NCBI GenBank assembly: GCA_050015375.1
Contig: JBEKBN010000001.1
Coordinates: 34,683 to 98,682 of the forward strand
Direction: 5' to 3'
Length of the DNA stretch: 64,000 nt
Source of the DNA: Minisyncoccia bacterium
GTDB taxonomy: Bacteria; Patescibacteriota; Minisyncoccia; 2-02-FULL-40-12; IGHO2-01-FULL-4-A
Shown here: positions 6,984-46,750 of the stretch, piece after piece
Position numbering within the stretch: the first letter of the stretch is position 1
How the letters are laid out: each line of letters starts with the position of its first letter
Translations under genes and position numbers: made by a program
The notes under the pieces: model-generated
What the model was told of the DNA's origin: nothing
The model's input: only the letters and a program-made list of their open reading frames with translations
The model's database searches: none

Positions 6984-8753
6984 ATGCCATTTTTCGGAAA
7001 GAAAAAAGAAAAAGTTCAGGAAGATACCGCCAAGAAAACCTTCGACGATATTTTGGCGCCTTCGGCGATAAATCTTTCGGCAAATTACATCCAGATCGGC
7101 GACAAATTCGCTCGGACCTTGTTTGTCATCACTTATCCGAGATACCTCAATACCAATTGGTTCTCGCCGATAATCAACATGGACCAGCCGATGGATATTT
7201 CTATTTTCATTCACCCCTTGGACACCGGCGTTATTTTGAAAAAATTACGTGACAAGCTTGGACGCCTTGAAGCCGAGGTCATGGAAGACGAGTCGGCCGG
7301 CAAGGTCCGCGATCCGGTCAAGGAAACGGCGGTCAACGACATTGAGGAGCTTCGCGACAAACTCCAGCAGGGCACCGACAGGTTTTTCGAATTCGGTTTG
7401 TATGTCACGCTTTATGGCGACTCGGTCAAGGAACTTGACGAAGTTGAGAATAAAGTTCGGGCGATTCTGGACGCCCAATTGGTCTACACTAAGCCGGCGA
7501 CTTTCCGGATGAAAGAAGGTTTTTTCTCGACCATGCCTTTGAGCAACGACCAGTTGGATGTCCATACTTCGCTTAATACCGAACCGGTTTCTTCGCTGTT
7601 CCCGTTCGTCTCTTACGACCTGACCACCGACAAAGGGATACTTTACGGCGTCAATTCGCATAACAATTCTCTGGTGCTTTTCGACCGGTTCAGTTTGGAA
7701 AATTACAACATGGTCGTCTTCGGTAAATCCGGCGGCGGCAAATCCTACGCCGTTAAATTGGAGATAATGAGAAGTTTGATGCTTGGCGTTCAGGTGTTCG
7801 TTATTGATCCTGAGAATGAATTCAAATATCTTGCCGATACCGTCGGCGGCACTTCAATAAAAATATCCATTTCGTCAGAGGACCACATCAATCCTTTCGA
7901 CCTGCCCAAACCCCAGCCAGACGAATCGCCGGCCGATGTTTTGCGTTCACATATTTTGGACCTGATCGGGCTTTTGAAACTGATGCTTGGCACGATCACT
8001 TCCGACGAGGAAGCTATTCTTGACGAAGCCGTCATTCAGACCTATGCCATCAAAGATATCACCCAAAATTCCGATTTTTCCAGCGCCACGCCACCTCTCA
8101 TGTCCGATCTCTTGAGCGTGCTTGAAGGCATGACCGGCGCCCAGTCGCTGGCTGTCCGGCTGAAAAAATATACCGAGGGCAGTTTCGCCGGTTTTTTGAA
8201 CAACCCGACCAATGTCCGGCTTGATAATCAGTTGGTCGTTTTCGGCATCCGCGACATGGAGGAAGAGTTGCGGCCGGTGGCGATGTATCTGGTTCTAAAT
8301 TACATCTGGGCTCAAGTCCGGAGCGACATAAGAAAAAGATTGCTGGCGGTGGATGAGGCCTGGGTTTTGCTGAAATACGAGGTTGGCGGCGCTTTTCTTC
8401 TCAATATCGCCAAAAGGGCCAGGAAATATTATCTGGGCCTGACGACTATCTCCCAGGACATTCCCGATTTCATGAATTCGGCTTACGGCAAACCGATCGT
8501 CACCAACTCATCGCTCCAATTGCTTTTGCGCCAGTCGCCGGCTTCCATTGACCTTGTCCAACAAACATTCAATCTGACCGATTCCGAGAAATTTTTCCTG
8601 TTGGAATCGCGAGTCGGCCACGGGCTTTTCTTCGCCGGCCAGAATCATGTCGCTCTCCAGGTCGTTTCTTCTTACGCCGAAGACCAGGTCATTACTTCCG
8701 ACCCGCGCCAACTGGCCGACATCGAAGAGGCCAAAAAAGAACTAGAAAAGTAG
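6984..8753 (+). CDS. virB4: VirB4/TrbE/CagE-family conjugal-transfer ATPase (ATPase core)
   Basis: Walker A VVFGKSGGGKSYAV. Walker B LLAVDEAWVLL (DEAW typical of VirB4/TraC). Region before Walker A (KFARTLFVITYPRYLNTNWFSPII...DISIFIHPLD) is typical of VirB4. Confidence 0.7.
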   Translation: MPFFGKKKEKVQEDTAKKTFDDILAPSAINLSANYIQIGDKFARTLFVITYPRYLNTNWFSPIINMDQPMDISIFIHPLDTGVILKKLRDKLGRLEAEVMEDESAGKVRDPVKETAVNDIEELRDKLQQGTDRFFEFGLYVTLYGDSVKELDEVENKVRAILDAQLVYTKPATFRMKEGFFSTMPLSNDQLDVHTSLNTEPVSSLFPFVSYDLTTDKGILYGVNSHNNSLVLFDRFSLENYNMVVFGKSGGGKSYAVKLEIMRSLMLGVQVFVIDPENEFKYLADTVGGTSIKISISSEDHINPFDLPKPQPDESPADVLRSHILDLIGLLKLMLGTITSDEEAILDEAVIQTYAIKDITQNSDFSSATPPLMSDLLSVLEGMTGAQSLAVRLKKYTEGSFAGFLNNPTNVRLDNQLVVFGIRDMEEELRPVAMYLVLNYIWAQVRSDIRKRLLAVDEAWVLLKYEVGGAFLLNIAKRARKYYLGLTTISQDIPDFMNSAYGKPIVTNSSLQLLLRQSPASIDLVQQTFNLTDSEKFFLLESRVGHGLFFAGQNHVALQVVSSYAEDQVITSDPRQLADIEEAKKELEK

Positions 8754-13160: not shown

Positions 13161-13167
13161 TGGTTGA

Positions 13168-13250
13168 CCCCATTAGAGAGTGTTGATTAATCTTGTTTGT
13201 CTCCAAATTTCGGGGTTATTTTTCTAATTCACCCTCTCTAACGGGGTTGA
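13168..13250. repeat. CCCGTTAGA...TCTAACGGG-family palindromic element; right arm forms the 3' end of rnpA
   Basis: CCCCATTAGAGAG (13168-80) ... CTCTCTAACGGGG (13238-50) inverted termini with one A/G mismatch. Lies between the rnpA stop and the yidD start. Confidence 0.55.
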
Positions 13251-13575
13251 CAGATATTTTTTTGATGTTTTTTTCGATTTGCCCCTTGATTTCATCAAAC
13301 GACTTCTCTAGGATGATTGGGGTCGCCGTGATGACGGCGTCCAGCGGTAAATTTAAAAATAATTTCAGGGCTTCGGATATTCTTCTTTTTATCCGGTTCC
13401 GGTCAACGCTTTTTTTCGAGACCGAAACGGGCACGACGATGCCCCAGCGGGCGAAGTCCCGTCCGTTGGCCAGATACCTGATAAAGAAAAAACTGTTTTG
13501 GACAGTTTTCCCCTCTCTAAAAAGGCGGCGGAAGTCGTCTTTGGCGGTAATCCTGTTTTTTTTGGGTAAAGCCAT
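13216..13575 (-). CDS. rnpA: ribonuclease P protein component RnpA
   Basis: KKNRITAKDDFRRLFREGK...IRYLANGRDFARWGIVVPVSVSKKSVDRNRIKRRI typical RnpA; rpmH directly upstream. The last ~11 codons (VNPVREGELEK) are encoded by the palindromic element arm. Confidence 0.85.
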   Translation of the reverse strand: MALPKKNRITAKDDFRRLFREGKTVQNSFFFIRYLANGRDFARWGIVVPVSVSKKSVDRNRIKRRISEALKLFLNLPLDAVITATPIILEKSFDEIKGQIEKNIKKISVNPVREGELEK

Positions 13576-15522: not shown

Positions 15523-16611
15523 ATGAATATAATTATTAACAGACAAAAACTTCAGTCGGCGCTTGGCGTGGTCGAGAAAATAATTTCCAAGAATGTTTCT
15601 TTGCCGATCCTCAATACCATTTTACTTAAAACCGAGAACGGCCGGCTGAAATTGTCGGCTACTAATTTGGAAATGGGCATCAAGTACTGGGTCGGCGCCA
15701 AAATAAACAAAGAAGGCGAAGTCGCCGTGCCCGCCAGAGTATTTTCTGATTTCATCAGCAACGTCAATGACGAAAAACTGAATCTGTCGGTGGAAAAAAA
15801 CGTCATTTCCATAAATTCTGAGCATTACAAAACCCAAATTCTGGGTCTTGATACCAAAGAATATCCGATCCTGCCCAAAGCCAAGAATGCCGTCGAATTC
15901 AAGATTTCCAGCTCGACCCTGAAGAATTCTCTGGCGTCGGTATTCGATTCCTCCTCGCTTTCCGAAACCAGACCGGAGATCGCCGGCGTCCTTTTGAATG
16001 TCGGCAAAAACAAAGCCGAATTCGCCGCCACCGACAGTTTTCGCCTGGCCGAGAAAATAATTGACGTCCGGGACGGCATAGACCGTTCAATGATCATTCC
16101 CCGGACGACGGCCTTGGAATTGATGCGGATCTCGGAAGGCGCCGAACAGGAATTGACTCTGGCGGTGGCCGACAATCAGCTTTTCGTTTCAGGCGAGGAT
16201 TTTGAATTCGTTTCCCGGCTCATTGACGGCCATTACCCGGAATACAAAAAAGTCATTCCCGAACGATTCGTGGCTTTGGCCAAAGTTGATAAGGCCGAAT
16301 TTGAGAGAAATATCCGGATGGCCAGCGTTTTTTCTTCCAATGTTTTTGATATCAAACTCAAAGCCGCCGGCAACCTGCTCCAAATAAAAGCCCAAAACAA
16401 CGATCGCGGGGAGATCCTGACCAACATTCCCTGCCTGGTGAAAGACGGACCGTTCGAGGTTTCGGTCAATTATCATTATCTTTTGGATGGCATCAAATCA
16501 ATTCCGACGGCCAATCTCATCATCCAATTCACCGGCGACGGCAGTCCTTTGGTTCTCAAAGGCGAAGAGAAAAAAGACCAGACGTATATCATAATGCCGT
16601 TGAGGGGCTAA
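15523..16611 (+). CDS. dnaN: DNA polymerase III beta sliding clamp
   Basis: 362 aa. MNIIINRQKLQSALGVVEKIISKNVSLPILNTILLKTENGRLKLSATNLEMGIKYW typical DnaN N-terminus. Confidence 0.9.
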   Translation: MNIIINRQKLQSALGVVEKIISKNVSLPILNTILLKTENGRLKLSATNLEMGIKYWVGAKINKEGEVAVPARVFSDFISNVNDEKLNLSVEKNVISINSEHYKTQILGLDTKEYPILPKAKNAVEFKISSSTLKNSLASVFDSSSLSETRPEIAGVLLNVGKNKAEFAATDSFRLAEKIIDVRDGIDRSMIIPRTTALELMRISEGAEQELTLAVADNQLFVSGEDFEFVSRLIDGHYPEYKKVIPERFVALAKVDKAEFERNIRMASVFSSNVFDIKLKAAGNLLQIKAQNNDRGEILTNIPCLVKDGPFEVSVNYHYLLDGIKSIPTANLIIQFTGDGSPLVLKGEEKKDQTYIIMPLRG

Positions 16612-16618
16612 TCGTGGA

Positions 16619-16684
16619 CCCCGTTAGAGTCCACGCCCGCGCTTGCGCGTCCGTAGGACTTGGGCGGGTCTGACTCTAACGGGG
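16619..16684. repeat. CCCGTTAGA...TCTAACGGG-family palindromic element (copy a)
   Basis: CCCCGTTAGAGTCCACGCCCGCGCTTGCGCGTCCGTAGGACTTGGGCGGGTCTGACTCTAACGGGG. About 90% identical to the reverse complement of the 19120-19183 copy. Confidence 0.7.
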
Positions 16685-16965
16685 TGGATAGTTTGAAATC
16701 AAAACTCGATTCTCTCAAACAAAAATTGACCGCCAACGAGGAGGCGGATAAAAAACTGAGAGCCGATATTAACGGCGTCCTGGAGGCGATATTCCGGAAC
16801 CAGCGGCTTGGACCCGGACAGATCAGAGAGTTTCATCTCAAGAACGGGGTCTTGTTTTTGGAGGCAAAAAACAAGGTTGTCGCCAACGAACTTTTTCTCA
16901 AAAAAGAAGAGCTCAAAGCGCTTCTTCAAAAAAACAAAGACATCAAAGACGTGGTGATAAGATGA
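16684..16965 (+). CDS. DUF721/DciA-like small protein (start codon uncertain)
   Basis: About 95 aa. C-terminal NGVLFLEAKNKVVANELFLKKEELKALL resembles DUF721. Gene position after dnaN matches B. subtilis yaaB. Track start 16660 (TTG) lies inside the hairpin; GTG at 16684 or TTG at 16693 more likely. Confidence 0.4.
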   Translation: MDSLKSKLDSLKQKLTANEEADKKLRADINGVLEAIFRNQRLGPGQIREFHLKNGVLFLEAKNKVVANELFLKKEELKALLQKNKDIKDVVIR

Positions 16966-16977
16966 GAAGATTTATGG

Positions 16978-19119
16978 CTAGTTGGTTGACGCGGGTGTTG
17001 GCGCCGGTGTCGGTAGAGGCGTCATATTTATCTGGCCCGTGTTCATGGCCCATCTCTCTACGACCGCTTCCCAATTTTTGAATTGTGGATCGTCTGATGG
17101 ATTTGTCGGCGGCGGGCCTTGGGGGTCCGTTTTGTCAACGTAATATAAAATCGAATGGATGCCGTCAGGCCCGAGATACTGGCCGTTGAGCATAATTTTA
17201 TCCGTCTGGACCGGATCGGGCTTGATAAAATTTTCTACCGGCGTGCCATCAAGCGCCCGCGACATGAACTCATGCCACATTGGGCCGGCGGCCGAAACAC
17301 CGGCGCCGGCGGCGGTCATGGAACTGTTGTCATTATTGCCGGTCCAGACGCCCGCCGCCAAAGATGGCGTGTAGCCGATCAGCCAGCCGTCGCGGTTCTC
17401 CTGAGTGGTGCCGGTTTTAGCCGCCACCGGCCGGTCGGGGAAATACAGGGCGCTGTTGTAACCGAATTCCGGCGCCCGGGCCTTGTTGTCGGAAAGCATA
17501 TCTGAGATCGTTCTGGCGATCTGAGGATCCAGCACCCGCTCTTCGTCTTTCCGGTATTCTTCCAAAACTGTGCCGTCATTGGCGACGACTTTCAAGATAA
17601 AATTCTGAGCTTCTTTGATGCCGTCATTGGCGAAAACGCTGTATGCTGAAACCATATCCACCAATTTCACTTCGCCGCCGCCAAGGACCAGTGACAACCC
17701 GTATCGGGAGCGGTCGTTGAGAGTGGTGATGCCCATTTGATGAGCGAGGTTGATGGTGTCGTCAAGACCGGCCAAATACAAAACCTGAACCGACGGCACA
17801 TTGAGAGACATCCCTATAGCTTGGCGGGCGGTGACCGGTCCCCGGAATTTGCCGTCGTAATCTTGGGGATGGTAGCAAGCGACAGTACCAGTCGGGTCGA
17901 AACTCTGATCACCCGACGGATCGCAAGTCGGCGTGAATTCGGTTTTGAGATCGAACAAAACTGTCGAGTCGGTAAAACCCTTTGAGATAAGTTCGGCGTA
18001 AGCGAAGGGTTTGAAAGAAGAACCCGGCTGTCTGGGCGCGGTGGCGACATTGAAATTCCCCTGGTTGGCGATATCAAAATAATCACGGGAGCCGACCATG
18101 GCCAGGATCTGTCCGGTCTTAGGATCGGCCGCCACCAAAGCGGCGTTGGTGGCTTTATATTGTTTGGCGTTGATGTTGCCGTATTTGGTGACGACATCCT
18201 GAGCGATACTTTGAAGGTTGGTGTCGAGAGTGGTGTAAACTTTCAGGCCGCCGTTATCAACCATGTCCTCGCCGTATTTATCAATAAGATATTCTTTGAC
18301 CATGATCACAAAATGGGCCGCCTGAAAATCCTTTGCCGGCGGAATGAAATCCGGTTTGATTTTGATAGCGACATTGTAGTCGTCGGCGGTAATGTAGCCG
18401 AGATCTTTCATCCGTCCCAGAACGTAATTCCGGCGGGCGATGAGTTCGTCGGTGTGGTTGCCGTAGGGCGAGTAATAGGTCGGCGCTTGGGGAATGGCTG
18501 CTAGCGTTGCCGCTTCGGACAAAGTCAGGTCAGAAGCGTTTTTGTTGAAAAATGTCTGGCTGGCGGCCTCGATGCCGTAAGCGTTTGAGCCGTAGGGGAT
18601 CTGGTTGAGATACATCCAGAATATCTGGTCCTTGGTGTATTTTCTCTCGATCTCAATGGAGAGAGCCACTTCTTTTATCTTTCGGGGAATGGTTTTCTCG
18701 TCGGATAAAAGAGCGTTTTTGACAAGCTGTTGGGTGATGGTCGAGCCGCCTTGGGACGCTTTCAAGGTAGTGACGTCCTTGTAAGCCGCCCGCAAAATTC
18801 CCCAAATATCTATCCCCTGGTGGTTGTAAAAGTCGCTGTCCTCGGCGGCTAAAGTCGCTTTCCGGATGACATCGGGCATCTGATCCCAGGGAATGATCGT
18901 TCTTTTTTCTTCGCCGTGGACATCGTAAAGGAGATTGGTGCCGGTCCGGTCGTAGATCTTGGTTGACTCGCTCAATTTGCGGGACATGATGACCGAGGGA
19001 TCGGGCACTTGGCCGGCATAATAGACGAAAAGCCCGGCCAAAACAACAATACCGATAACGATGAGGCAGACGGCGTAGAGCAATAGCTTCCTAAACAATC
19101 TGAAGCGGTTTTTTTTCAT
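16978..19119 (-). CDS. bifunctional penicillin-binding protein 1A (glycosyltransferase + transpeptidase)
   Basis: TM anchor, then GT motif AAEDSDFYNHQGID and TP motifs GSSFKPF / SxN / KTGT. ATG at 19119 (MKKNRF...); the longer track ORF reads through the upstream palindromic element. Confidence 0.85.
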   Translation of the reverse strand: MKKNRFRLFRKLLLYAVCLIVIGIVVLAGLFVYYAGQVPDPSVIMSRKLSESTKIYDRTGTNLLYDVHGEEKRTIIPWDQMPDVIRKATLAAEDSDFYNHQGIDIWGILRAAYKDVTTLKASQGGSTITQQLVKNALLSDEKTIPRKIKEVALSIEIERKYTKDQIFWMYLNQIPYGSNAYGIEAASQTFFNKNASDLTLSEAATLAAIPQAPTYYSPYGNHTDELIARRNYVLGRMKDLGYITADDYNVAIKIKPDFIPPAKDFQAAHFVIMVKEYLIDKYGEDMVDNGGLKVYTTLDTNLQSIAQDVVTKYGNINAKQYKATNAALVAADPKTGQILAMVGSRDYFDIANQGNFNVATAPRQPGSSFKPFAYAELISKGFTDSTVLFDLKTEFTPTCDPSGDQSFDPTGTVACYHPQDYDGKFRGPVTARQAIGMSLNVPSVQVLYLAGLDDTINLAHQMGITTLNDRSRYGLSLVLGGGEVKLVDMVSAYSVFANDGIKEAQNFILKVVANDGTVLEEYRKDEERVLDPQIARTISDMLSDNKARAPEFGYNSALYFPDRPVAAKTGTTQENRDGWLIGYTPSLAAGVWTGNNDNSSMTAAGAGVSAAGPMWHEFMSRALDGTPVENFIKPDPVQTDKIMLNGQYLGPDGIHSILYYVDKTDPQGPPPTNPSDDPQFKNWEAVVERWAMNTGQINMTPLPTPAPTPASTN

Positions 19120-19183
19120 CCCGTTAGAGTTAGCCCGCCCAAGTCCTCCGGACGCGCAAGCGCGGGCGTGAACTCTAACGGGA
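19120..19183. repeat. CCCGTTAGA...TCTAACGGG-family palindromic element (copy b, inverted relative to copy a)
   Basis: CCCGTTAGAGTTAGCCCGCCCAAGTCCTCCGGACGCGCAAGCGCGGGCGTGAACTCTAACGGGA. Abuts the PBP1A start codon. Confidence 0.7.
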
Positions 19184-19227
19184 TTCATAATCTTTGGATA
19201 AGCATATTTTGCCATAAAAAATCGATT

Positions 19228-19302
19228 TTTACAAACCCCTCACTTGGAAAATACTTGCGACAAGGTCGCGAAGTCCAAATAGTATTTTCCAAGTGAGGGG
19301 TA
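19228..19302. repeat. 75-nt hairpin with 20-bp perfect inverted repeat
   Basis: CCCCTCACTTGGAAAATACT (19228-47) / AGTATTTTCCAAGTGAGGGG (19283-19302). Loop contains the GCGACAAGGTCGC mini-hairpin. Confidence 0.6.
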
Positions 19303-19353
19303 AACAAAAACCCCGCCCATGAGAGGGCGTGAAGCGCTATCTCATGGGCGGGG
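19302..19353 (-). terminator. rho-independent terminator of the yebC-ruvC-acidic ORF transcript
   Basis: CCCCGCCCATGAGA / TCTCATGGGCGGGG 14-bp perfect stem. On the minus strand it is followed by TTTTTGTTT. Confidence 0.65.
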
Positions 19354-20199: not shown

Positions 20200-20733
20200 C
20201 TACTCACTACTAACTAAATTGGAGTAGATATTTTCGACATCGTCTTGGTCGTCGAGTTCGGTGAAAAGTTTTTCAAGTTTGTTTTTTAAATTCTGGTCGG
20301 AGATTTCAAGCGGGTTTCGCGGATTCCATGACTGGTCGAACATCCAGTTGAGTGAATTCTCCGGCACCATTTTGGCGTCATTTTTGAACAAAATATTTTT
20401 TATCTCACCGATGGTTCGGTTTCGGTTGTCGGTAATACCTTCGACGACAATGGCGACTCCATTTGGTCCCATCGCTTGGATAATGAATTCATCTAGCGCG
20501 GCGGCATCTTTTTCAGATGCTTTTTTGATAGCCCGTTCGATGTTGTCATTGGGCATATTGAAATCGCGCGCCTCGTCAATGGCGTTTTGAAGTTTGTAAT
20601 TCGCTTTCGGATCGGCGCCGTCTCGGGCGGCCATCGCGATCTTTTTGGCGAATTTACTGAAAATCTGGCCCTTTTTCTGGTCGTTAACGCCTTTTTGCCT
20701 CTTAATTTGTTGCCATTTACTGTGCCCACTCAT
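20200..20733 (-). CDS. yebC: YebC/PmpR-family transcriptional regulator (short form)
   Basis: MSGHSKWQQIKRQKGVNDQKKGQIFSKFAKKIAMAARDGADPKANYKLQNAIDEARDFNM... conserved N- and C-termini of YebC. Only 177 aa; a middle segment appears absent. Confidence 0.75.
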   Translation of the reverse strand: MSGHSKWQQIKRQKGVNDQKKGQIFSKFAKKIAMAARDGADPKANYKLQNAIDEARDFNMPNDNIERAIKKASEKDAAALDEFIIQAMGPNGVAIVVEGITDNRNRTIGEIKNILFKNDAKMVPENSLNWMFDQSWNPRNPLEISDQNLKNKLEKLFTELDDQDDVENIYSNLVSSE

Positions 20734-20856
20734 ATTTTTGTATTTTTCATCTTAAGTTAACCCCTTTTTAATATCTTGGTCAATATTGGAAAAAGGTGGT
20801 AAGATTGTCTGGCAATGAAAAGCTATTTTAAAATTCAAAAATATCGGGAGGTCATT

Positions 20857-21645
20857 ATGAAATGGCTATGGGTGAGTTCTGTTTTTGTGTTTGTTTTCAT
20901 TTTGGGATTATCGGGCACTTCTCGAGCGCAAACCGCCAGCTCGGCCAGTGATGTCCGGCTCGATTATGTCAGGAATCAATTGCTTGCTGGTGGATTTAAT
21001 CAGGCACAAGTAGGGAATTTGCTTACCGACAGCCGGATCCAGCTTTTGCCGAAAATTTCCGTCGCTTACAAACCGGCGAATTGGACGGCGGTCGCCAAAA
21101 GAATGTATTCGAAAACATCGGTTCAGGCCGGCGTCAATTATATCAAAAGCAATCAAGCAATTTTTGACGACACGCAAAAATATTATGGCGTGCCAAGCGG
21201 AGTCATCGCCGGCATCATGGCTATCGAGACCAATTTCGGAAGCAACGTCGGTAGTTATCCCGTTTTTAACGCCCTCTATTCGCGGATGGAACACTGGCCG
21301 GCAAGTTCCTGGCAATATCAGGCGGGAGAGCTGGTGGCATTTTCGAAATATTGTCTGAACGCGAATTTTGATTGTCTACAATTGAAAGGTTCATACGCTG
21401 GCGCCATCGGTCTCGTTCAATTCATGCCCGATTCTATTTTGGCCTACGGCGTGGATGGCGACAAAGACGGCGTTGTTGACCTCCTCAACGCGGCCGATGC
21501 CGTTCCCAGCGCCGCCAATTTTCTTATCCGCCACGGCTGGTTCGTGAATAAACTCAAAGCTCTCGGCAGTTATTACGGCTCACCCGTCGGCTATCCAAGC
21601 ATCGTCCTGACCTACTCGACTCTGGTTGCGAAAGGGTTGAAATAA
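20857..21645 (+). CDS. lytic murein transglycosylase (MltB-like SLT domain), secreted
   Basis: Signal peptide MKWLWVSSVFVFVFILGLSGTSRA. AGIMAIETNFGSN and GAIGLVQFMPDS motifs of the lytic transglycosylase B family. GGGAGG Shine-Dalgarno before ATG 20857. Confidence 0.7.
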   Translation: MKWLWVSSVFVFVFILGLSGTSRAQTASSASDVRLDYVRNQLLAGGFNQAQVGNLLTDSRIQLLPKISVAYKPANWTAVAKRMYSKTSVQAGVNYIKSNQAIFDDTQKYYGVPSGVIAGIMAIETNFGSNVGSYPVFNALYSRMEHWPASSWQYQAGELVAFSKYCLNANFDCLQLKGSYAGAIGLVQFMPDSILAYGVDGDKDGVVDLLNAADAVPSAANFLIRHGWFVNKLKALGSYYGSPVGYPSIVLTYSTLVAKGLK

Positions 21646-21857
21646 CATTACCCACAATTTGTGAACAGATTATCAACTGGTGGCGTGGCGCGGGCGGACG
21701 GGGAGGAATAGAATATTTCTATGGCCAAGAAAACAAAAAAGGAATATCGGAGTTCCAAAACCGGCCAGATGGTCTCGGCTGATTTCGGCAAGAAACACCC
21801 ATCAACGACTGAATGGGAAACCATACCAATGAAACTTCCCGTCCGAAAAAAGAAAAA

Positions 21858-22280
21858 ATGAAAGCCGACATGACGATTCTCAAAGAATTCAAACAATTTC
21901 TGCTTCGGGGAAATGTGGTTGACCTTGCCGTCGGCGTCGTTATCGGCGCCGCGTTCGGCACCGTGGTCTCAGCGTTGGTCAAAGACATCCTGACCCCGCT
22001 CATCGGAGCCATCGCCAGAGTGCCCGATTTTTCCGGTCTCGCCTTCACCATCAATAAAAGCAAATTCTTATACGGCAATTTTCTCAACGGCATAATTTCT
22101 TTTTTACTTGTGGCGACGGCGATTTTCTTCTTCGTCATCAAGCCCATGAATTACCTTGTTTCCCGTTCCCACAAAGAACCGCCGGCCGACCCAACGACCA
22201 AAAAATGTCCGGAATGTCTGAGTGAAATTCCCATCCAGGCCAAACGTTGCGCCCATTGTGCCCAAAAACTCGAAGAATAA
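21858..22280 (+). CDS. mscL: large-conductance mechanosensitive channel MscL
   Basis: ILKEFKQFLLRGNVVDLAVGVVIGAAFGTVVSALVKDILTPLIG is the hallmark MscL N-terminus. Start at ATG 21858 or 21870. Confidence 0.85.
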   Translation: MKADMTILKEFKQFLLRGNVVDLAVGVVIGAAFGTVVSALVKDILTPLIGAIARVPDFSGLAFTINKSKFLYGNFLNGIISFLLVATAIFFFVIKPMNYLVSRSHKEPPADPTTKKCPECLSEIPIQAKRCAHCAQKLEE

Positions 22281-23629: not shown

Positions 23630-24058
23630 ATGAAGGGGAATCTGGCGGCTCGATCTATGGGAAACACCTACCTCTCGTATCAGCAATTAAAAAAACCATC
23701 ATGGTCTCCGCCGAGCTGGCTTTTCGGCCCGGTCTGGACGGCGCTTTATATTTTAATCGTCATTTCCTTCGGTTACACCGGCTGGCTGTTTTTCAACGGT
23801 AAAATTTCCTTCCTCATCCTTTTGCCGTTCATCCTGAATCTAATTTTCAATTTTTCTTTTACCACTATCCAATTCAAACTCAAGAATAATCTGCTGGCGG
23901 CCGCCGACATCTTGCTTGTCTTAGCCACTCTCATCTGGGCCATGGTTGCCATCTATTTTGACGTCCGCTGGATCGCCTATCTCCAAATACCATATTTTCT
24001 CTGGGTTTCCTTCGCGACCATACTGCAACTGACAGTTACATATTTAAACCGGGAATAA
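23630..24058 (+). CDS. tspO: TspO/MBR-family tryptophan-rich sensory protein
   Basis: KPSWSPPSWLFGPVWTALYILIVISFGYTGWL; 5 TM helices, Trp-rich. Confidence 0.7.
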   Translation: MKGNLAARSMGNTYLSYQQLKKPSWSPPSWLFGPVWTALYILIVISFGYTGWLFFNGKISFLILLPFILNLIFNFSFTTIQFKLKNNLLAAADILLVLATLIWAMVAIYFDVRWIAYLQIPYFLWVSFATILQLTVTYLNRE

Positions 24059-24251
24059 ACACTTCGGACAACGAAAGATATTATTCTGAATGGCCCCGAC
24101 CCGCCGGAACCGTTGACCCTCACACCAAATTTTGGTGTGCGGGTTGATTTTTTGAGCAAAAAGTGGAATAGTTTGTGTTTGAACCGAGAAAAGAGTAGAA
24201 TGGAAGCCGGGTATTTAAATCGTAATATTAATTTTTTAAATCAAATTTCAC

Positions 24252-24800
24252 ATGAATATCAAAGATGTAAAAACAGCAATAAAGGTTGGTGATTTTGTAT
24301 TGAGGAAAAATCATAGAAATAAAATAGATATCAAATATTTATCTAGTTTAAGCAGTGACATACTTACTGATAATTCGGCCAGGGTTTATTTAATAATTCA
24401 AGACGAGATTATTAAGAAAATCGGAGGCTCTGCTTCAAAAGGGGGAATTAAGGCAACAATGGCATTCTATGTTTCAGCCATGGAAGGAAGTCCGGGCGTC
24501 CCCAGGTTTGTTCTTCACCTCCTTATTGAAAGAGCTCTAATTGGCAAATCAAAAATGGAATTATACATGATAACTTCTCCTAAAACACTTGCCAGGGTCA
24601 GTGGCTTATTCGGCTATAAGAAAGTAAAAATTGCAAGTTTTAAGGAGATGGAGGATTTATGCAAATCCGATTATTTTTCGATAGAAAAGAAATATCCCGA
24701 TTGGAATTTCCAAGAAAATCACCAACCGTATCCTCCTGACTTGGCAAAAGAGCATAATTTATACCACCAAAGACGGCTCAAAAATAAACTTAAATTTTAG
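24252..24800 (+). CDS. hypothetical protein (AT-rich gene, convergent with lexA-dam fusion)
   Basis: 182-aa ORF at very low GC; no motif recognised. Confidence 0.35.
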   Translation: MNIKDVKTAIKVGDFVLRKNHRNKIDIKYLSSLSSDILTDNSARVYLIIQDEIIKKIGGSASKGGIKATMAFYVSAMEGSPGVPRFVLHLLIERALIGKSKMELYMITSPKTLARVSGLFGYKKVKIASFKEMEDLCKSDYFSIEKKYPDWNFQENHQPYPPDLAKEHNLYHQRRLKNKLKF

Positions 24801-26328
24801 GTGGACAGAAAATAATTATCTCGTGAGACTCTTTTATGTGATTCCCATTACCATTCCTTCGATTCAATCCTATTCTGGTTTCCCCTTGGCCCATAGTGTA
24901 TTGCCATGAAGGGAAAAGTTGCTGAAATTCCTTGTAATGTTCTTTTATCGTCGGGCAGTTATTATATGAGAGGATGAATCCTCCTTTATGATTTTTTAAC
25001 AAATCTCGCAAATCCTCATGAGGGAATCCCTTATGATGAACAGGTATATTTCTCATCGGATAGATCCCTTTAAACATTTTTGAATCTTTACCTATGTAAT
25101 AAGGGGGATCGCAATACAAAAAATCGTCGGGGTGATCTCTAATGACATCCCTAAAATCCGCACACTCAACTTTAAGATTATTGGGATCAAAATCTCGGAT
25201 ATTTTCAATTGTCCTCTTATATTTTTTGTCATTCAAATAAATGTCAGATGACCAGCCCATAAACCCTGGGCCATATGATAAATTGAAGTTGTAAACATAA
25301 TAGACAGCCAAAGTTAGCGGATCTAGTTTAACTTTCTTTTTCCACACATCATTCAATATTAATCTAATTCTTTCAAATGTTTCCTTGTTTGGTTTCAACT
25401 CTTTCAATTTTTTATAAAGAAGTTTTGGTTTATTAATCTGAAACCCCCAGTAATTACAGAGAATATCAAAAATATCATAACCAATAACTTCCAGGCCGAG
25501 TTCTTTACTCATGGCTATTTCGATTGAACCACCGCCGAAAAACGGTGATACAACCCTTTTTATATTCTCTGGCAGTAACTCAACTATATGACCCACGGCT
25601 AAACTTTTTCCACCCGCATATCTTATGGGGGAAAGAGCAACTCTTTTGTATTTGTTCTGACTGTCCGGATTAGAACTTCTGATACGGTCTAAGAAAGTTT
25701 TTTTTCTGAGCGCTAATGTATTGTTCTTATTGCCATTTTCCAAATTTCTTATAATTTTGATTACGATACCCCGGATCTCTAATTCTTTACGATAGATCGG
25801 CAATATTTCCTGATTTGCCGGTTGTAATCTAAAGCGTCCACTTTCTCGATAGATTTTTTTTAGGGTCGCCTTATCGTCATCAATAATTGCTACTACAGTT
25901 TGACCATCATCGGCGGTTTTTTGCTCACGAATTACCACGGTATCCCCGTCAAATATCCCATCGTTAATCATGCTATTGCCCGACACTCTTAATGCATAGT
26001 GCCTGCCAGCAATTGGAATTTCAGTCTGGGGAATAAAGATATTTTCTCCGTGCATCTCAAGCGCTTCAATCGGTTGACCAGCGGCAATTGTCCCGAGGAG
26101 GGGGATACGGACCAGTTTAGTCGAGGTTTTGACAATTTGAATTCCTCGCGCGCGGCCGTTAGCTTTTTCCAGATATCCCTTGTCCTGCAGGATCATCAGA
26201 TGTTCGTGTGCCGTTGACGGCGAAATCCTAAGTCGGCGGGCAATTTCACGTTCGGTCGGAGCGATGCCTTTTTTTGCGATGACTTTATCCACAAGATCTT
26301 TCACTTGTTTCTGTCTTGGTGTGAGCAT
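24790..26328 (-). CDS. LexA-like repressor (HTH + S24 peptidase) fused to Dam-type N6-adenine DNA methyltransferase
   Basis: N-terminus MLTPRQKQVKDLVDKVIAKKGIAPTEREIARRLRISPSTAHEHL (LexA HTH). ...VSGNSMINDGIFDGDTVVI...TLKKIY (S24 Ser/Lys dyad). Linker, then SPIRYAGGKSLAVGHIVELLP...SPFFGGGS (motif I) and LYCDPPYYIGK (DPPY motif IV) of D12-class Dam MTases. One uninterrupted 512-517-aa ORF. Confidence 0.65.
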   Translation of the reverse strand: MLTPRQKQVKDLVDKVIAKKGIAPTEREIARRLRISPSTAHEHLMILQDKGYLEKANGRARGIQIVKTSTKLVRIPLLGTIAAGQPIEALEMHGENIFIPQTEIPIAGRHYALRVSGNSMINDGIFDGDTVVIREQKTADDGQTVVAIIDDDKATLKKIYRESGRFRLQPANQEILPIYRKELEIRGIVIKIIRNLENGNKNNTLALRKKTFLDRIRSSNPDSQNKYKRVALSPIRYAGGKSLAVGHIVELLPENIKRVVSPFFGGGSIEIAMSKELGLEVIGYDIFDILCNYWGFQINKPKLLYKKLKELKPNKETFERIRLILNDVWKKKVKLDPLTLAVYYVYNFNLSYGPGFMGWSSDIYLNDKKYKRTIENIRDFDPNNLKVECADFRDVIRDHPDDFLYCDPPYYIGKDSKMFKGIYPMRNIPVHHKGFPHEDLRDLLKNHKGGFILSYNNCPTIKEHYKEFQQLFPSWQYTMGQGETRIGLNRRNGNGNHIKESHEIIIFCPPKI

Positions 26329-26343
26329 ATTATAATTATACAA

Positions 26344-26395
26344 TATATACCCGAGCAGAACCCGAGCAGTTATCCACAGTCAATTATTGAATCAA
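26344..26395 (-). promoter_or_regulatory. putative leaderless promoter/operator of the lexA-dam gene
   Basis: Minus strand: TGTGGATAA (perfect DnaA-box 9-mer), then CTGCTCGGGTT-CTGCTCGGGT tandem direct repeat, then TATAAT ending 5 nt before the ATG. No Shine-Dalgarno sequence. Confidence 0.4.
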
Positions 26396-26502
26396 ATTAT
26401 GAAGAGAGTATTATTGTATGTTAAATTATTAATTAAAATAACTATCGTACGAAAAGGGCTTCAAACAAAACCCTTTCAGTAGGGTAGTGAAAATTAATCT
26501 CA

Positions 26503-27015
26503 ATGTACAAAAATATTCATAATTTCGTTCCATTTCAACATGACAATCAAGATTTTAAAAACAAACTAATAGGTTTTGCACGCAACCAAGATAAGATAAA
26601 AATTGAAGGTGTTTTTACGGCAACTCTAATCTATACAAACCTCGTTGATTATTTAGCTACGAACCTGTTCGATAATCTAAATAAAATGTTATCAATTTTT
26701 ACATTTAAAAAATTTGGTGGCGTTTTTCATCTAGATACATCCCAAAAAAGGACCCATTTATCAGTCGGAGAGTTACAGAGAGAATTAAGTTATTTCGAAT
26801 TTCCAAATCGAAATGATTTTTTGGCATGTTTAGAAGAATTCAGGAGGCTCCGAAATGAAGTTATGCATAATCTCATGGGAGTTGATCCCAACGACACAAC
26901 AATGAAACTTGATAAGGGTTTAGCGAGGATTGCAGAGATTTCCGAAGATATTCTAGCGAAATATAATGTGATTTGTGCAGGGCTTATAACTATTTGGAAT
27001 AACGCCAACGCTTAA
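26503..27015 (+). CDS. hypothetical protein
   Basis: 170-aa ORF in the AT-rich island; no motif recognised. Confidence 0.35.
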   Translation: MYKNIHNFVPFQHDNQDFKNKLIGFARNQDKIKIEGVFTATLIYTNLVDYLATNLFDNLNKMLSIFTFKKFGGVFHLDTSQKRTHLSVGELQRELSYFEFPNRNDFLACLEEFRRLRNEVMHNLMGVDPNDTTMKLDKGLARIAEISEDILAKYNVICAGLITIWNNANA

Positions 27016-27053
27016 AGGAGTAATATAATTAATCAAGAAAGGAGGTAAATAAT

Positions 27054-27281
27054 ATGCATAGGCAAAATAAACAAGTAATAGAATATATTCTGCTCATTTC
27101 AATTATTATATTACCCTTTGTCGCGGGGTATATATTTAATGATTACAAAATACCAGCATTTCTCTTTTTGCTTGGTACTGCTCTGTTTCATGTTGTCAGA
27201 GAAAGGATTCAATCGAATATAAGCGGAGAGGGGGTCAGAAAAATTACAGTGGGTAGCAAAGCACCCCCTGGATCCAGCTAA
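27054..27281 (+). CDS. small 2-TM membrane protein
   Basis: Strong Shine-Dalgarno AAAGGAGGT 8 nt upstream; two hydrophobic helices. Confidence 0.4.
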   Translation: MHRQNKQVIEYILLISIIILPFVAGYIFNDYKIPAFLFLLGTALFHVVRERIQSNISGEGVRKITVGSKAPPGSS

Positions 27282-27364
27282 AGGTGATTTATGGCTTAAA
27301 ACAAAAGACTGACATGGATAGCGAAAATCGTACAGCTTGGATTGAGGGAAAAACAGTGCGATAA

Positions 27365-27850
27365 TTGATTGTCATGGAAAGCACAACAACATTTGTTCGG
27401 GATTTAATTAAGGGTCGGATTGCAGAAACGATTTTTGAAATGATGTTTCGGGAAACCGGAAAATTTACCATTCTCCGTTTTGGCTATGAATATACCCAGC
27501 CGGAACTCGCCCAGTACAAACATTATTTAAGATTACCGGAAGCCATCGAAAATATAGATAATTCCCCGGACTTTATTTTGTTATCGAATGATAAAACAAA
27601 AGTATATTTAGTTGAAGTAAAATACAGATCAAGTTTTGACTCAGACAAGATAAAAGTGATTGCCCAAAGCATTGCTTCAAGATGGCATTCCCCATACTTA
27701 TTTATCGCTACTCCAAAGGGTTTCTTTTTTGAACCATGCAATACAATCATCAAAAATAATGGAAACATCGGGCAATTATTTGATAATAAAGTGCCAAAAG
27801 AAATCCAAGAGAAATACCTAGAACTACTCAATGAATTTGAAAGAAAATAA
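27365..27850 (+). CDS. hypothetical protein with PD-(D/E)xK-like motif (module 1 large gene)
   Basis: ...SPDFILLSNDKTKVYLVEVKYRS... fits the PD...(D/E)xK nuclease signature. Central region shares HSPYLFIATPKG ~ HIYLFAPAHVAG with the 27968 gene. Confidence 0.4.
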   Translation: MIVMESTTTFVRDLIKGRIAETIFEMMFRETGKFTILRFGYEYTQPELAQYKHYLRLPEAIENIDNSPDFILLSNDKTKVYLVEVKYRSSFDSDKIKVIAQSIASRWHSPYLFIATPKGFFFEPCNTIIKNNGNIGQLFDNKVPKEIQEKYLELLNEFERK

Positions 27851-27859
27851 CGCCAACTT

Positions 27860-27958
27860 GTGATCCGGAAAATCAAAAATAAATATGTGGTTTTGTCCGA
27901 GAACGGCGAGCGGAAATTCGAGAGGTATAAATTTGAAAAAGCGATCAAACAGAAGTAA
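27860..27958 (+). CDS. tiny conserved ORF (module 1), VIRKIKNKYVVLSENGERKF-family
   Basis: 32 codons from GTG 27860. The peptide is nearly identical to the N-terminus of the 28438 ORF, while the DNA differs at synonymous positions. Confidence 0.4.
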   Translation: MIRKIKNKYVVLSENGERKFERYKFEKAIKQK

Positions 27959-27967
27959 AATTAAGGC

Positions 27968-28396
27968 GTGGGGAAAATAATAAAAATATCTGAAAAGCTG
28001 TATCAATTCAGGGATGAGACGGCCCTGATCATAGTTGCGGCCAAGCAGGAAGGCCGCGTTTTTCGCGCCGGCAACGGCGAACTCGAGCTTCTGGAAAAAT
28101 TCCGCGTCTCCACACCGCACTTTTCCGACAATGAAGGAATGTCGCAGGAGCGTGGACGTCGGGAAAATATCATTGAGGAAAACATCCATCACGAATACTT
28201 TGAGCATTTCCAAAAACTTTTGCGTTCCCTCGCGCCCCGTCTCAAGCCGACCCATATTTATCTCTTCGCTCCGGCTCATGTGGCAGGGGAGCTGGAGAAT
28301 ATCGTGAGACCGATCTTCGGCGCTCTGGCCGTCAGAACCGTCACCGGTATTTTCACCAAAGACACGCCGGTTGAATTCCTTGAACGGCTTCATTGA
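27968..28396 (+). CDS. hypothetical protein, divergent paralogue of 27365 gene (module 2 large gene)
   Basis: 142 aa; SLAPRLKPTHIYLFAPAHVAGELE aligns with SIASRWHSPYLFIATPKGFFFE of the upstream gene. Higher GC. Confidence 0.4.
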   Translation: MGKIIKISEKLYQFRDETALIIVAAKQEGRVFRAGNGELELLEKFRVSTPHFSDNEGMSQERGRRENIIEENIHHEYFEHFQKLLRSLAPRLKPTHIYLFAPAHVAGELENIVRPIFGALAVRTVTGIFTKDTPVEFLERLH

Positions 28397-33301: not shown

Positions 33302-33439
33302 CCCCTCACCCAGAAAGCATTAGTTCTGTACTTCGCAAGTCCTATTAGACCAGCCCCATTTACATAATCGGATGCTATGCGAATGGCTTTTTCAATCAGC
33401 AGAACCAATGTGGCTTGCAGATGCTTTCTGGGTGAGGGG
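33302..33439. repeat. 138-nt element bounded by 19-bp perfect inverted repeats
   Basis: CCCCTCACCCAGAAAGCAT (33302-20) / ATGCTTTCTGGGTGAGGGG (33421-39). Confidence 0.6.
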
Positions 33440-33708: not shown

Positions 33709-35376
33709 TCACTGGCCAATAACCCTCATCACTTCCTCGATAGTGGTTTTGCCTTCGATAGCTTTGAGCAATCCGTCCTGAAGCAAAGTAATCATACCCT
33801 TAGCCACAGCCATTTCTCTAACATCGGAAATTGCCGGTGATCTCTGGATCAATTTCTCCAATTCTGGATCAATTTCAAATAATTCATAAACCCCGACCCG
33901 GCCGGAATAGCCGGTGGAATTGCAAGCCGCGCATTTGTCCGGATAAACGACCTCCGACTTCTCGTTGAAATTTTTCAAACGTTCATTGCCGTTTTTGGCG
34001 AACGCTTTTTTGATGATCTCAAAATCCTCTGGTTTTATTTTTTGTTTTTTGCCGCATTTTGGGCAAGGCCGGCGGACAAGACGCTGGGCCATGACGGCAT
34101 TGATGGCCGGAGCGATGGTGATGGGCTTGACCCCAAAGTCAATCAAGCGGGGGATAGCGCCGGCGGCGTCGTTGGTGTGAAGGGTCGAGAAAACCAAATG
34201 CCCGGTCAACGCCGCTTGCATGGCGATCTCGGCGGTCTCGACATCGCGGATCTCACCGACGAGAATGACGTCCGGGTCTTGGCGGACGATGGAACGGAGG
34301 CCGCTGGCGAAAGTATAACCGGCATCGGGTTCGACTTGGGTTTGGGCGATGCCTTCGATGTGATATTCAACCGGATCTTCAATGGTGATTATCTTGATGT
34401 CGGGATTGTTGATGTGTTTGATGAAAGCGTAAAGTGTCGTCGTCTTGCCTGAACCGGTCGGTCCGGTGGTCAGGATCGCGCCGGTGGTTTTGTCGAGTAA
34501 TTTTCTGATGATTTCCAAGGTGTCAGGACGCATGCCGAGATCTTCAAGTTTTTGTTTGATGGTCAACGGGTCGAGAATACGCATGACGATATCCTCGCCG
34601 TAACTTCCCGGCAGGATCGAAACCCGGACCTCGATGTCGTTGTCTTTTTCTCTGATTGTGAATCGGCCATCCTGAGGTGACTCGTGAATGTTTATTTTGA
34701 GACCCGACATCAATTTTATTCTTGAAAGCAATTGGCCGTAACCGTCGGGCGAAAAATTGACGACATCGTTCAAAACGCCGTCCAGCCGGTAGCGGAGGCG
34801 GATGGTTTTTTCCTCGGGTTCGAAATGAATATCGGAAGCCCCGATCTTCAAAGCGCCGGCGATGAGAATGTTGAGAACCTTGGTCACCGGCATGCTGGTC
34901 AGTTTGTCCTTGAGGTCGCTGATATTTTTGATCTCTTTTTCAATGCCCAAAATCCCGGTGTCTCCGATAGAAATGATATTGAGAGATTCTTGTGCCCCTC
35001 TCAAGGTGTAACGCTTCCAAGCCAAAGCCAAGCTGGTCTCAGAGACAACGGCCAGATCACAAATAAAACCGGCTGCCGCCAGTTTTGAGAGGGCTTCTTT
35101 GGTTTTGGGATTTTCCGGGTCAAGAACCGCCACTTTGAGCTTGCGGCCGGTCTTAGTGATGACGGCGAGTTGGCCGGCGTGGGCGTCGCTTTCGTCCAAA
35201 ACCGACAAAGCGTCTGAATCAATAGGGAAGGCCTTCAAATTGAGATAGGGAAGGCCGGTTTTTTTGGATAATTCCTTTGATTCGTCCTCAAATTGCTGGA
35301 GTTTCATCGCCTCCATCTTCTCATTGAGCTTTTTTTCGAGGTCGGAACTTGAATTGTTCGTGGTCTGTGGTGGCAT
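33709..35376 (-). CDS. type II/IV secretion-family ATPase (PilB/GspE-like)
   Basis: Walker A GPTGSGKTTTLYA; Asp/His boxes; C-terminal tetra-Cys CPKCG...CAACNSTGY of GspE/PilB. Confidence 0.85.
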   Translation of the reverse strand: MPPQTTNNSSSDLEKKLNEKMEAMKLQQFEDESKELSKKTGLPYLNLKAFPIDSDALSVLDESDAHAGQLAVITKTGRKLKVAVLDPENPKTKEALSKLAAAGFICDLAVVSETSLALAWKRYTLRGAQESLNIISIGDTGILGIEKEIKNISDLKDKLTSMPVTKVLNILIAGALKIGASDIHFEPEEKTIRLRYRLDGVLNDVVNFSPDGYGQLLSRIKLMSGLKINIHESPQDGRFTIREKDNDIEVRVSILPGSYGEDIVMRILDPLTIKQKLEDLGMRPDTLEIIRKLLDKTTGAILTTGPTGSGKTTTLYAFIKHINNPDIKIITIEDPVEYHIEGIAQTQVEPDAGYTFASGLRSIVRQDPDVILVGEIRDVETAEIAMQAALTGHLVFSTLHTNDAAGAIPRLIDFGVKPITIAPAINAVMAQRLVRRPCPKCGKKQKIKPEDFEIIKKAFAKNGNERLKNFNEKSEVVYPDKCAACNSTGYSGRVGVYELFEIDPELEKLIQRSPAISDVREMAVAKGMITLLQDGLLKAIEGKTTIEEVMRVIGQ

Positions 35377-35422
35377 GTACTAATTTTAACACTCAAAAGG
35401 TCTAATTTCTAAAAACTTATTC

Positions 35423-35490
35423 ACCCCGGTTAGAAGTCGGAAGTTTTTGACTTCCGCCGGCTCGCGTTAGCGAGCCGGACTTCTAACGGG
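35423..35490. repeat. CCCGTTAGA...TCTAACGGG-family palindromic element (variant GTTAGAAG)
   Basis: CCCCGGTTAGAAGTCGGAAGTTTTTGACTTCCGCCGGCTCGCGTTAGCGAGCCGGACTTCTAACGGGG; two internal hairpins. Confidence 0.6.
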
Positions 35491-41559: not shown

Positions 41560-41574
41560 CCCGTTAGAGTTGGC
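41560..41574. repeat. truncated copy (left arm only) of CCCGTTAGA palindromic element
   Basis: CCCGTTAGAGTTGGC, same start as the 19120 copy (CCCGTTAGAGTTAGC). No matching right arm downstream. Confidence 0.35.
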
Positions 41575-46481: not shown

Positions 46482-46546
46482 CCCGTTAGAGGTAATCAAC
46501 CCTCGGGTTGATGCCGATTCGGATGTCCGAATCGGACCTCTAATGG
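46482..46546. repeat. CCCGTTAGA...TCTAACGGG-family palindromic element (copy e)
   Basis: CCCGTTAGAGGTAATCAACCCTCGGGTTGATGCCGATTCGGATGTCCGAATCGGACCTCTAATGGG; two internal hairpins. 12 nt upstream of the 3D-domain gene start. Confidence 0.6.
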
Positions 46547-46663
46547 GAATAAAAAACGGCCTATTAAGCCACTTTTTATGATAAAAGCCCTATTTGGGCT
46601 TCATGCTTCTAATACTATCACAGACCGTAATATTTGTCAACCCATGTTCGGGATTCTGTCAAC

Positions 46664-46740
46664 CCCGTTAGAAACAGCCCGCCCCAGGGCCTTTTGGGCG
46701 CGCTCACGTGCGGGCGTGGTTTCTAACGGGATCAAGTAAG
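46664..46740. repeat. CCCGTTAGA...TCTAACGGG-family palindromic element (copy f)
   Basis: CCCCGTTAGAAACAGCCCGCCCCAGGGCCTTTTGGGCGCGCTCACGTGCGGGCGTGGTTTCTAACGGG. Its CACGCCCGC...GCGCG...GGGCGGG core resembles copies a/b. Confidence 0.6.
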
Positions 46741-46750
46741 GGATTGCACG

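Follow-up and report, generated by a model that had tools for sequence, protein, structure and literature searches.

The 64-kb stretch of Minisyncoccia bacterium DNA analyzed here (contig JBEKBN010000001.1; called the window below, with positions counted along its full length) contains seven full copies, designated A to G, of a short palindromic element, together with one solo arm. [quoted passage not shown] The elements (51-117 nt) are multicopy and have no open reading frame (ORF) of their own, and every structural feature of a MITE is present except for an identified autonomous partner; none with the same ends was found in the window, in the viewed parts of the contig, in the 119 loci compared across genomes or in 80 loci of the insertion sequence (IS) family IS1380. 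The proposal is carried by empty orthologous sites in relatives, by a 4-bp target duplication seen across phyla and by the way in which the copies meet the reading frames of their host genes.

Copies in the window and empty sites in relatives

The arm sequence CCCGTTAGA has 12 exact matches in the window, as against 0.33 expected from dinucleotide-preserving shuffles, and the paired pattern CCCGTTAGA-N30-60-TCTAACGGG has four exact matches against an expectation of 0. Relaxed arm pairing, in which a few mismatches were allowed, defined seven full elements of 63-77 nt and one solo left arm (Table 1). The family of repeated palindromes reported in a preliminary description, made from the sequence alone, is therefore real, and the copy list given there stands overall, with corrections for copy G (62601-62677, not 62591-62667) and for the end of copy F (46730, not 46740). 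Inverted terminal repeats CCCGTTAGAG / CTCTAACGGG bound the seven window copies and 146 copies elsewhere, and the stem formed by the arms usually extends inward for a further 2-4 bp with covarying bases. Copy B and the reverse complement of copy C are ~90% identical and share their interior with copy F, as had been noticed before; C is a sibling of B with the same orientation to its downstream gene, and F matches C in interior class and orientation. The solo arm is probably a truncated copy; neither it nor copy D has a counterpart in the relative L123. The perfect 12-bp hairpin CCCTGTTAGAGG/CCTCTAACAGGG at 52343-52369 is arm-like but was rejected as a member, since it sits within a pseudouridine-synthase ORF and codes for the conserved LLEV..LTGR motif of that enzyme, which makes it a chance palindrome.

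Table 1. Element copies in the window and copies at type IV prepilin sites in other loci
Feature	Position	Strand	Length and arms	Flanks
Copy A	13169-13245	.	77 nt, 1 mismatch	GTTGAC 13163-13168 / GTTGAC 13246-13251
Copy B	16620-16683	+	64 nt	GTGGAC / GTGGAT, TGGA duplicated
Copy C	19120-19182	-	63 nt	TTTCAT / ATTCAT (gene strand: ATGAA)
Copy D	35425-35490	.	66 nt, left arm with 1-nt insertion	ATTCAC / GTTCAC
Solo left arm CCCGTTAGAG	41560-41569	+	no partner arm	
Copy E	46482-46547	.	66 nt, 1 mismatch	TTTA vs ATAA, no target duplication
Copy F	46664-46730	-	67 nt	GTCAAC / ATCAAG, TCAA duplicated
Copy G	62601-62677	.	77 nt	ATGAAT at either end
Prepilin-site copies, L088	6777-6827, 7893-7943			
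Prepilin-site copies, L121	6623-6703, 7215-7277			
Prepilin-site copy, L008	6122-6199			
Prepilin-site copy, L075				
Prepilin-site copy, L109				
Prepilin-site copy, L031				

The window belongs to a metagenomic contig of 85 kb (ENA ERZ27250144), an identical copy of which is in Logan SRR7028199, and PBP1A homologs assign it to the Candidatus Yanofskybacteria-like Patescibacteria. Relatives were found through PBP1A homologs; a search for DnaN relatives in JGI metagenomes found none. The relative L122 is fully syntenic with the window, its PBP1A showing 90% protein identity and its sequence ~80% nucleotide identity overall. Copies A, B and C, which occupy the three comparable positions, are all missing at the orthologous sites of L122. 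At site A, L122 has a single GTTGAC (...CATTAGTTGACAGATAT...) where the window reads GTTGAC-element-GTTGAC, and the two BLAST segments aligned here overlap by 6 nt on the L122 side. RnpA has 119 aa in the window and ends ...ISVN-PVREGELEK*; in L122 it has 110 aa and ends ...ISVN*, and the rnpA stop overlaps the yidD start. At site B the dnaN and DUF721-like genes of L122 overlap by 8 nt with no element between them. At site C the element is missing in both L122 and L123, where PBP1A begins MKKRRF... and MAKPKF..., respectively.

A MITE-like mobile palindrome was one of the two readings in the preliminary description, and the empty site, which holds one copy of the duplicated target, supports it. 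When the comparison offered there for disproving an insertion was run on L122, the orthologous spacers were found to be without the sequences and RnpA without a palindrome-encoded C-terminus. The attribution of the rnpA terminus to the element was correct as such; its size is nine codons (PVREGELEK) rather than eleven, VN being host sequence. No copy exists in 36 kb of two relatives, as against seven in the 64 kb of the window. Relatives without any copy indicate that the family expanded recently in the lineage of the window, and on these genome comparisons a recent burst in this Yanofskybacteria-like genome can be taken as demonstrated.

A second pair of palindromes, with CCCCTCAC...GTGAGGGG ends, lies at 19226-19310 (30-nt arms at 19226/19281) and 33302-33439 (19-nt arms without a mismatch at 33302/33421); four occurrences of the 8-mer compare with 1.3 expected. 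The palindrome at 19226-19310 adjoins copy C, in a spacer that differs in L122, and the pair may be another small repeat family.

Ends, target duplication and distribution

Exact matches to CCCGTTAGAG-N30-60-CTCTAACGGG were sought in the representative genomes of GTDB and are present in at least 119 stretches, against a chance expectation that we estimate at ~17 (596 Gb x 31 spacings / 4^20). Among the matches listed, at least 69 stretches are from Patescibacteria, at least 21 from Planctomycetota, at least 14 from Omnitrophota and at least four from Nitrospirota; Elusimicrobia, Cloacimonadota, Bdellovibrionales and Methanosarcinales contribute at least one each, one gammaproteobacterial metagenome-assembled genome (MAG) at least two, and at least five are unclassified. 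Some of the matches, such as L042, look like chance. Many other genomes carry several copies per 8 kb. A scan of viral contigs gave a single match, and plasmids and phages, searched by BLAST with copy C, yielded chance matches alone.

Flank statistics were compiled from 146 non-redundant copies; these come from over 100 genomes, among them Patescibacteria, Omnitrophota, Planctomycetota and Nitrospirota. Positions -5 to -2 and +2 to +5 form a direct repeat of 4 bp with the sequence YNNR, mostly TNNA, whose per-position identity is 71-90%; of 122 copies, 83 have the same middle NN on both sides, a number that falls to 17 with shuffled partners. The bases at positions -1 and +1 complement each other in 137 of the 146 copies (C:G 102, T:A 35), and the outermost flank positions match in just 46%. 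The element ends are Y-CCCGTTAGAG...CTCTAACGGG-R, and the junction on either side reads R-TNNA-Y. The RTNNAY hexamers at both sides follow from a 4-bp YNNR duplication together with a terminal Y/R base, an arrangement preferred over a 6-bp duplication because identity is only 46% at the outer positions, compared with 71-75% at the middle two. The outer positions are also the only ones at which young siblings (B and C; L090) differ. Within the window a target duplication flanks copies A, B, C, D, F and G; copy E is without one, which suggests that it is older or rearranged.

Tandem arrays with spacers of exactly 6 nt (GCTCAC/GTGAGC, ATAAAT) occur in L008 (2943-3104), L035 (8-222) and L023 (2109-2310). 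Their copies lack matching duplications, and the arrays look as though element and spacer had been amplified together in tandem, not as though transposition had occurred repeatedly.

Host genes and reading frames

The window copies meet their neighboring genes in several ways. Nearly every copy is intergenic, as first described, except that copy A overlaps the rnpA end; the further statement that copies usually lie at a start codon applies to B, C and G, with D and E upstream of genes, F intergenic and A at the rnpA end. Copy A has entered rnpA (minus strand) at its last codon, adding PVREGELEK* and parting rnpA from yidD; it would extend RnpA by nine residues and uncouple yidD through a separation of ~80 nt. 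Copy B lies just downstream of dnaN between two copies of GTGGA that contain the GTG start of the DUF721-like gene. Copy C is placed exactly at the PBP1A start codon, in frame between two copies of ATGAA, and gene callers prepend MNPVRVHARACASGGLGRANSNG to PBP1A, giving 23-32 extra N-terminal residues (736- and 745-aa models). These residues are element-derived, because the proteins of the relatives start without them, and copy C may thus extend PBP1A N-terminally. A minus-strand gene ending at 46469 has copy E 12 nt upstream of its ATG; copy F is just downstream of a terminator hairpin (46749-46782), and the solo arm 14 nt upstream of an in-frame ATG (41584) preceding a DoxX gene.

Copies D and G adjoin promoters. 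The promoter of a T2SSE ATPase gene (35411-35383; ATG at 35376) has copy D 14 nt upstream of its -35 box; this promoter, TAGAAA-17-TGtTAAAAT, ends 6 nt before the ATG, and the gene is apparently leaderless. The insertion point of copy G is the start codon of the gene at 62678, which encodes a metallo-beta-lactamase-fold protein and is apparently leaderless. The promoter TTGAAT-17-TGcTATAAT at 62560-62588 ends 6 nt before an upstream ATG, which opens a 28-codon frame through the element (MNPVRERRPILRYLPIGLGYLIRDSLTG*), and the TGA stop of this frame overlaps the true ATG as ATGA. Copy G is therefore predicted to turn a leaderless gene into a coupled pair of upstream ORF (uORF) and gene, since the ATGA overlap would allow coupled re-initiation. 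The presence of strong extended -10 promoters 6 nt before an ATG (T2SSE ATPase, 35376-35411; the 62678 gene, 62560-62600) is an observation in its own right and suggests, as far as promoter sequences can tell, that leaderless mRNAs are in use in this organism.

The same compatibility with translation is seen across genomes. Element length is a multiple of 3 in 83 of 142 copies (58%), with peaks at 51, 57, 60, 63 ... 78 nt, and the arms are open in two of their three phases (PVR...SNG and TPLE...SLTG), the third having TAG and TAA. In nearly half of the frame-preserving copies (42/86) the frame stays open into an ORF of 80 or more codons, and 23 of these copies lie deep within ORFs; for copies that do not preserve the frame the count is 7/60, none of them deep within an ORF. 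A long-ORF start is found at offset 0 in 26 of 144 copies versus ~4.7 for random positions. Splicing of the element out of the mRNA was considered and ruled out, as the strong multiple-of-3 bias implies translation.

The commonest target, GTTTAC, corresponds to codons G-F-T of the type IV prepilin motif GFTLIE, and the pilus ATPase and platform genes found again and again beside the copies are accounted for in this way. Seven in-frame copies at the prepilin site read ...GFTPLE...SLTG↓FT(L/M)(I/V)E, so that the cleavage site is rebuilt behind a longer leader (Table 1). The left arm encodes FTPLE, a mimic of FTLIE with Glu at +5, and each such gene would accordingly have two candidate peptidase sites. 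Copies persist where the harm is small, the arms being open in two frames and most lengths being multiples of 3. As the junction rebuilds RTG starts and the G↓FT site, insertions at starts, gene ends and cleaved leaders survive.

Alternative readings, the mobilizing enzyme and known elements

Whole window elements fold better than shuffled sequences (z -3.6 to -8.3), mostly owing to the 12-14-bp closing stem. With the arms removed, structure beyond composition is present in D (z -6 to -7) and E (z ~-5) only; B, C and F give z ~-1, A shows none, and G reaches -1.9 on one strand only. Across genomes the interiors fall into recurrent classes common to several phyla: a two-hairpin three-way junction, a GC-rich class that includes B, C and F, classes with an internal partial arm, and purine-rich unstructured 51/57-nt forms. 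The two-hairpin class includes L110, L111 and copy E, which scores 48.6 bits against the covariance model R1; copy D, whose interior consists of two perfect hairpins, has the same fold. Significant structure is present in about a third of interiors, and 67 of 142 are unstructured. Among 20 hand-picked two-hairpin members all seven pairs of hairpin 1 change on both sides, and double-change cells number 86 versus 26.5 in shuffles and 13-31 in slid controls, a contrast that is inflated because the structure was derived from the same 20 sequences.

Such folding would be expected if the elements were a conserved structured RNA module, namely a 5' untranslated region regulator, processing site or terminator, with the stem CCCGUUAGAG/CUCUAACGGG bound by a protein or RNase. 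The strong folding of whole elements and the compensatory changes in interior hairpins agree with this reading, as do the position of several copies at gene starts and the single orientation of B, C and F relative to transcription. However, orthologous sites are empty in relatives of ~80% nucleotide identity, target duplications are present, nearly half of the interiors are unstructured, and many copies appear from their frames to be translated within ORFs. The covariance model of the two-hairpin class scores both strands almost equally, which fits a DNA-level structure on either strand better than one RNA strand. Rfam at gathering thresholds over the window recovered tRNAs only, with no match to an element, and at E<=10 over 16560-19260 there was no match at B or C; no T-tract terminator was seen at D and G, the two copies scanned. 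An RNA module is thus unlikely, and the structured regulatory module suggested in the preliminary description finds no support in the recent insertions, the unstructured interiors, the in-frame copies or the Rfam searches.

The second alternative is that the elements are palindromes of the REP/BIME type (repetitive extragenic palindromes and mosaics built from them), moved by a RAYT, an IS200-like HUH tyrosine transposase, acting on single-stranded hairpins. As with REPs, these are short palindromes that in the window lie mostly outside genes; they can cluster (in tandem in L008, L035 and L023) and form hairpins on either strand, and their tiny size suits a hairpin substrate better than duplex synapsis. 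REPs are nevertheless 20-40 nt long, species-specific and headed by GT[AG]G, which the arms lack. HUH enzymes leave no duplication, yet a 4-bp repeat flanks most copies and the empty site has a single target; the REP-like label given earlier finds no support on this point, since REPs make no target duplication. Neither a Y1 transposase among the Pfam-annotated genes of the contig nor a recurrent ORF beside the copies was found, and we consider movement by a RAYT very unlikely. A guide sequence of the IS200/IS605 type, with an interior GTCCAC/GTTCAC complementary to the flanks of B and C, was also tried and rejected, as it fails for F and other loci.

Site-specific recombination of an integron attC-like or Xer/IMEX-like kind, in which a circle with right arm, 6 nt and left arm would join an RTNNAY target, is hardly credible: the tandem junctions CTCTAACGGG-6 nt-CCCGTTAGAG do resemble an 11-6-11 recombinase core, variable interiors are combined with conserved ends at gene boundaries, and GTTAGAG / CTCTAAC are similar to GTTRRRY and RYYYAAC, the core motifs of integrons, but the motif order is the reverse of that in attC (RYYYAAC...GTTRRRY), with GTTAGAG...CTCTAAC here on both strands, the differing tetranucleotides that flank siblings (B TGGA, C TGAA, F TCAA; L008) mean that no overlap sequence travels with the element, and the targets are housekeeping genes (dnaN, PBP1A, rnpA) without arm-like sequence, near which no tyrosine recombinase recurs.

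For the mobilizing enzyme of the proposed MITE family, the best lead is IS1380. To our knowledge, CC ends and 4-5-bp duplications occur together in no IS family other than IS1380, a bacterial relative of piggyBac, which has CCC... ends and duplicates TTAA. Our sample comprised five plasmid-borne and 80 metagenomic PF13701 elements, the 80 loci being fetched with a three-sequence alignment. IS1380 elements (the five from plasmids and ~40 of the metagenomic ones) have ends CCCG(T/G/C)... and 4-bp YTAR duplications; measured ends were CCCGTCTTATTCA, CCCGGATATTTCA and CCCGCATATTTCAC, to be compared with (C/T)CCCGTTAGAG in the MITE, and the duplications seen were CTAA, TTAG, CTAG and TCGA. The ends of ISEcp1 and IS1247 were not informative. 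The MITE and IS1380 have in common 5'-CCCG ends and a 4-bp duplication whose first base is Y and whose fourth is R. They differ in that IS1380 elements are 1.6-1.7 kb long and encode a transposase, in that TTAGAG follows CCCG in 0 of the 85 examined, and in that no such transposase lies near the copies. A link between IS1380 (PF13701) and the MITE family is thus plausible but unproven on this comparison of ends. We propose that the elements would be moved in trans by a DDE transposase making a 4-nt staggered cut, most likely one of the IS1380 / piggyBac type.

Several points weigh against the MITE proposal and the enzyme suggested for it. No transposase was found in the Pfam lists for the viewed parts of the 85-kb contig, and no protein family recurs beside the copies, all-against-all clustering of the ORFs from 119 loci having yielded housekeeping families alone. 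Long pairs of left and right arms enclose no ORF and prove to be neighboring small copies; a solo arm in L020 adjoins ABC-transporter genes. A hidden Markov model built from 73 IS1380 transposases has no match in the window or in the MITE loci, and CCCGTTAGAG ends occur in 0 of 80 metagenomic IS1380 loci and 0 of five plasmid elements, a small sample of the family. IS1380 duplicates YTAR, whereas the MITE duplicates YNNR with a free middle and has an additional base at its terminus. At the terminal pair, B (C...G) and its sibling C (T...A) are not alike, which is odd for an element-encoded end and leaves some room for a 6-bp duplication of a palindromic RTNNAY target. Copy E has no duplication at all, and since the cross-genome sample was picked by exact arms, the arm conservation within it is there by construction. 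Finally, elements of 51-63 bp are smaller than most known MITEs and too stiff for synapsis as duplex DNA. The two-hairpin interior might be kept because a single-stranded or cruciform form would help arms only 35-55 bp apart to meet.

The sole recombinase on the viewed parts of the contig is a 546-aa large serine recombinase (Resolvase + Zn_ribbon_recom; L129, 1-183), located ~9 kb to the left of the window start (contig ~73.5 kb), a hint of an integrated element nearby.

A wider reading can be offered only tentatively. The elements may all belong to one class of MITEs that is very old or else highly transferable, ultra-short (51-80 bp) and compatible with translation, and that pervades the uncultivated 'nanobacterial' phyla and their neighbors (Patescibacteria, Omnitrophota, Planctomycetota, Nitrospirota and Elusimicrobia). 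In this class only the 11-bp ends would be fixed and the interiors would be interchangeable modules, including the three-way-junction hairpin maintained through compensatory changes. A piggyBac/IS1380-like enzyme would then act through a folded (cruciform or single-stranded) intermediate, and hosts would tolerate the copies and perhaps use them as N-terminal leaders, as in prepilin leader extensions that rebuild G↓FTLIE and in uORFs on leaderless mRNAs.

Among described elements, the Rickettsia palindromic elements (RPEs) are short palindromic repeats often found in frame within unrelated genes, giving translational fusions (PMC10969869). The window family resembles them in having no known transposase and in inserting in frame into ORFs, here for example rnpA and PBP1A. 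RPEs, however, measure ~100-150 bp, occur in Rickettsia and relatives and carry a peptide conserved along their length, whereas the elements described here measure 51-80 bp, are conserved only in their 10-11-bp ends, make a 4-bp duplication and occur in many phyla with a preference for gene starts and prepilin leaders; this contrast is drawn from descriptions of the RPEs. The Correia elements of Neisseria (CREE/NEMIS), RUP and ERIC likewise have inverted repeats, a duplication, no ORF and many copies near genes, can alter the expression of neighbors, and include several whose transposase is not known (see also PMC10969869). They differ in being 100-160 bp long with conserved interiors and in being confined, each of them, to a genus or family, in contrast to the single end sequence, the many unrelated interiors and the cross-phylum range of the window family. 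In the literature searched, including a 2024 review of prokaryotic MITEs (PMC10969869), we found no such element for Patescibacteria, Omnitrophota or Planctomycetota, although this coverage is incomplete, and a literature search for the arm sequences gave unrelated primer matches only. The elements form a new MITE family, whose unusual traits are the spread of one end sequence across phyla, the very small size and a design compatible with reading frames and start codons.

Other features of the window were recorded in passing. A tRNA-Ile gene with anticodon UAU (53297-53371, minus strand) adjoins tRNA-Val(UAC); the UAU anticodon is uncommon in bacteria, in which AUA is usually read by a lysidine-modified CAU tRNA. 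A low-GC island at ~24000-28000 (0.36 vs ~0.47) contains an ORF of 512-517 aa with LexA-type DNA-binding, S24 peptidase and D12 methyltransferase domains, directly upstream of which lies a gene for a Fic/RhuM protein, and the island is probably foreign DNA. In L123 the VirB4/TraG-like ATPase of a type IV secretion cluster (20480-22145; 1248 aa) contains an intein with a LAGLIDADG endonuclease; the orthologue in the window (6984-8753) has 589 aa and no intein.

Patescibacteria genomes are thought to be streamlined and to hold little mobile DNA. Here, a transposon family is seen soon after a burst, at a density of one copy per ~9 kb, with rnpA, dnaN-DUF721, PBP1A and a pilus ATPase promoter struck without being destroyed, and the family can serve as a marker for strain-level variation and for mis-annotated gene starts in MAGs. 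The occurrence of the same 11-bp ends in many phyla points either to a widely shared transposase or to frequent exchange of DNA between ultra-small bacteria and the neighbors with which they live. The preservation of frame and the repeated insertions at the prepilin G↓FT site provide an example, outside Rickettsia, of selfish DNA adding peptide segments to the proteins of its host.

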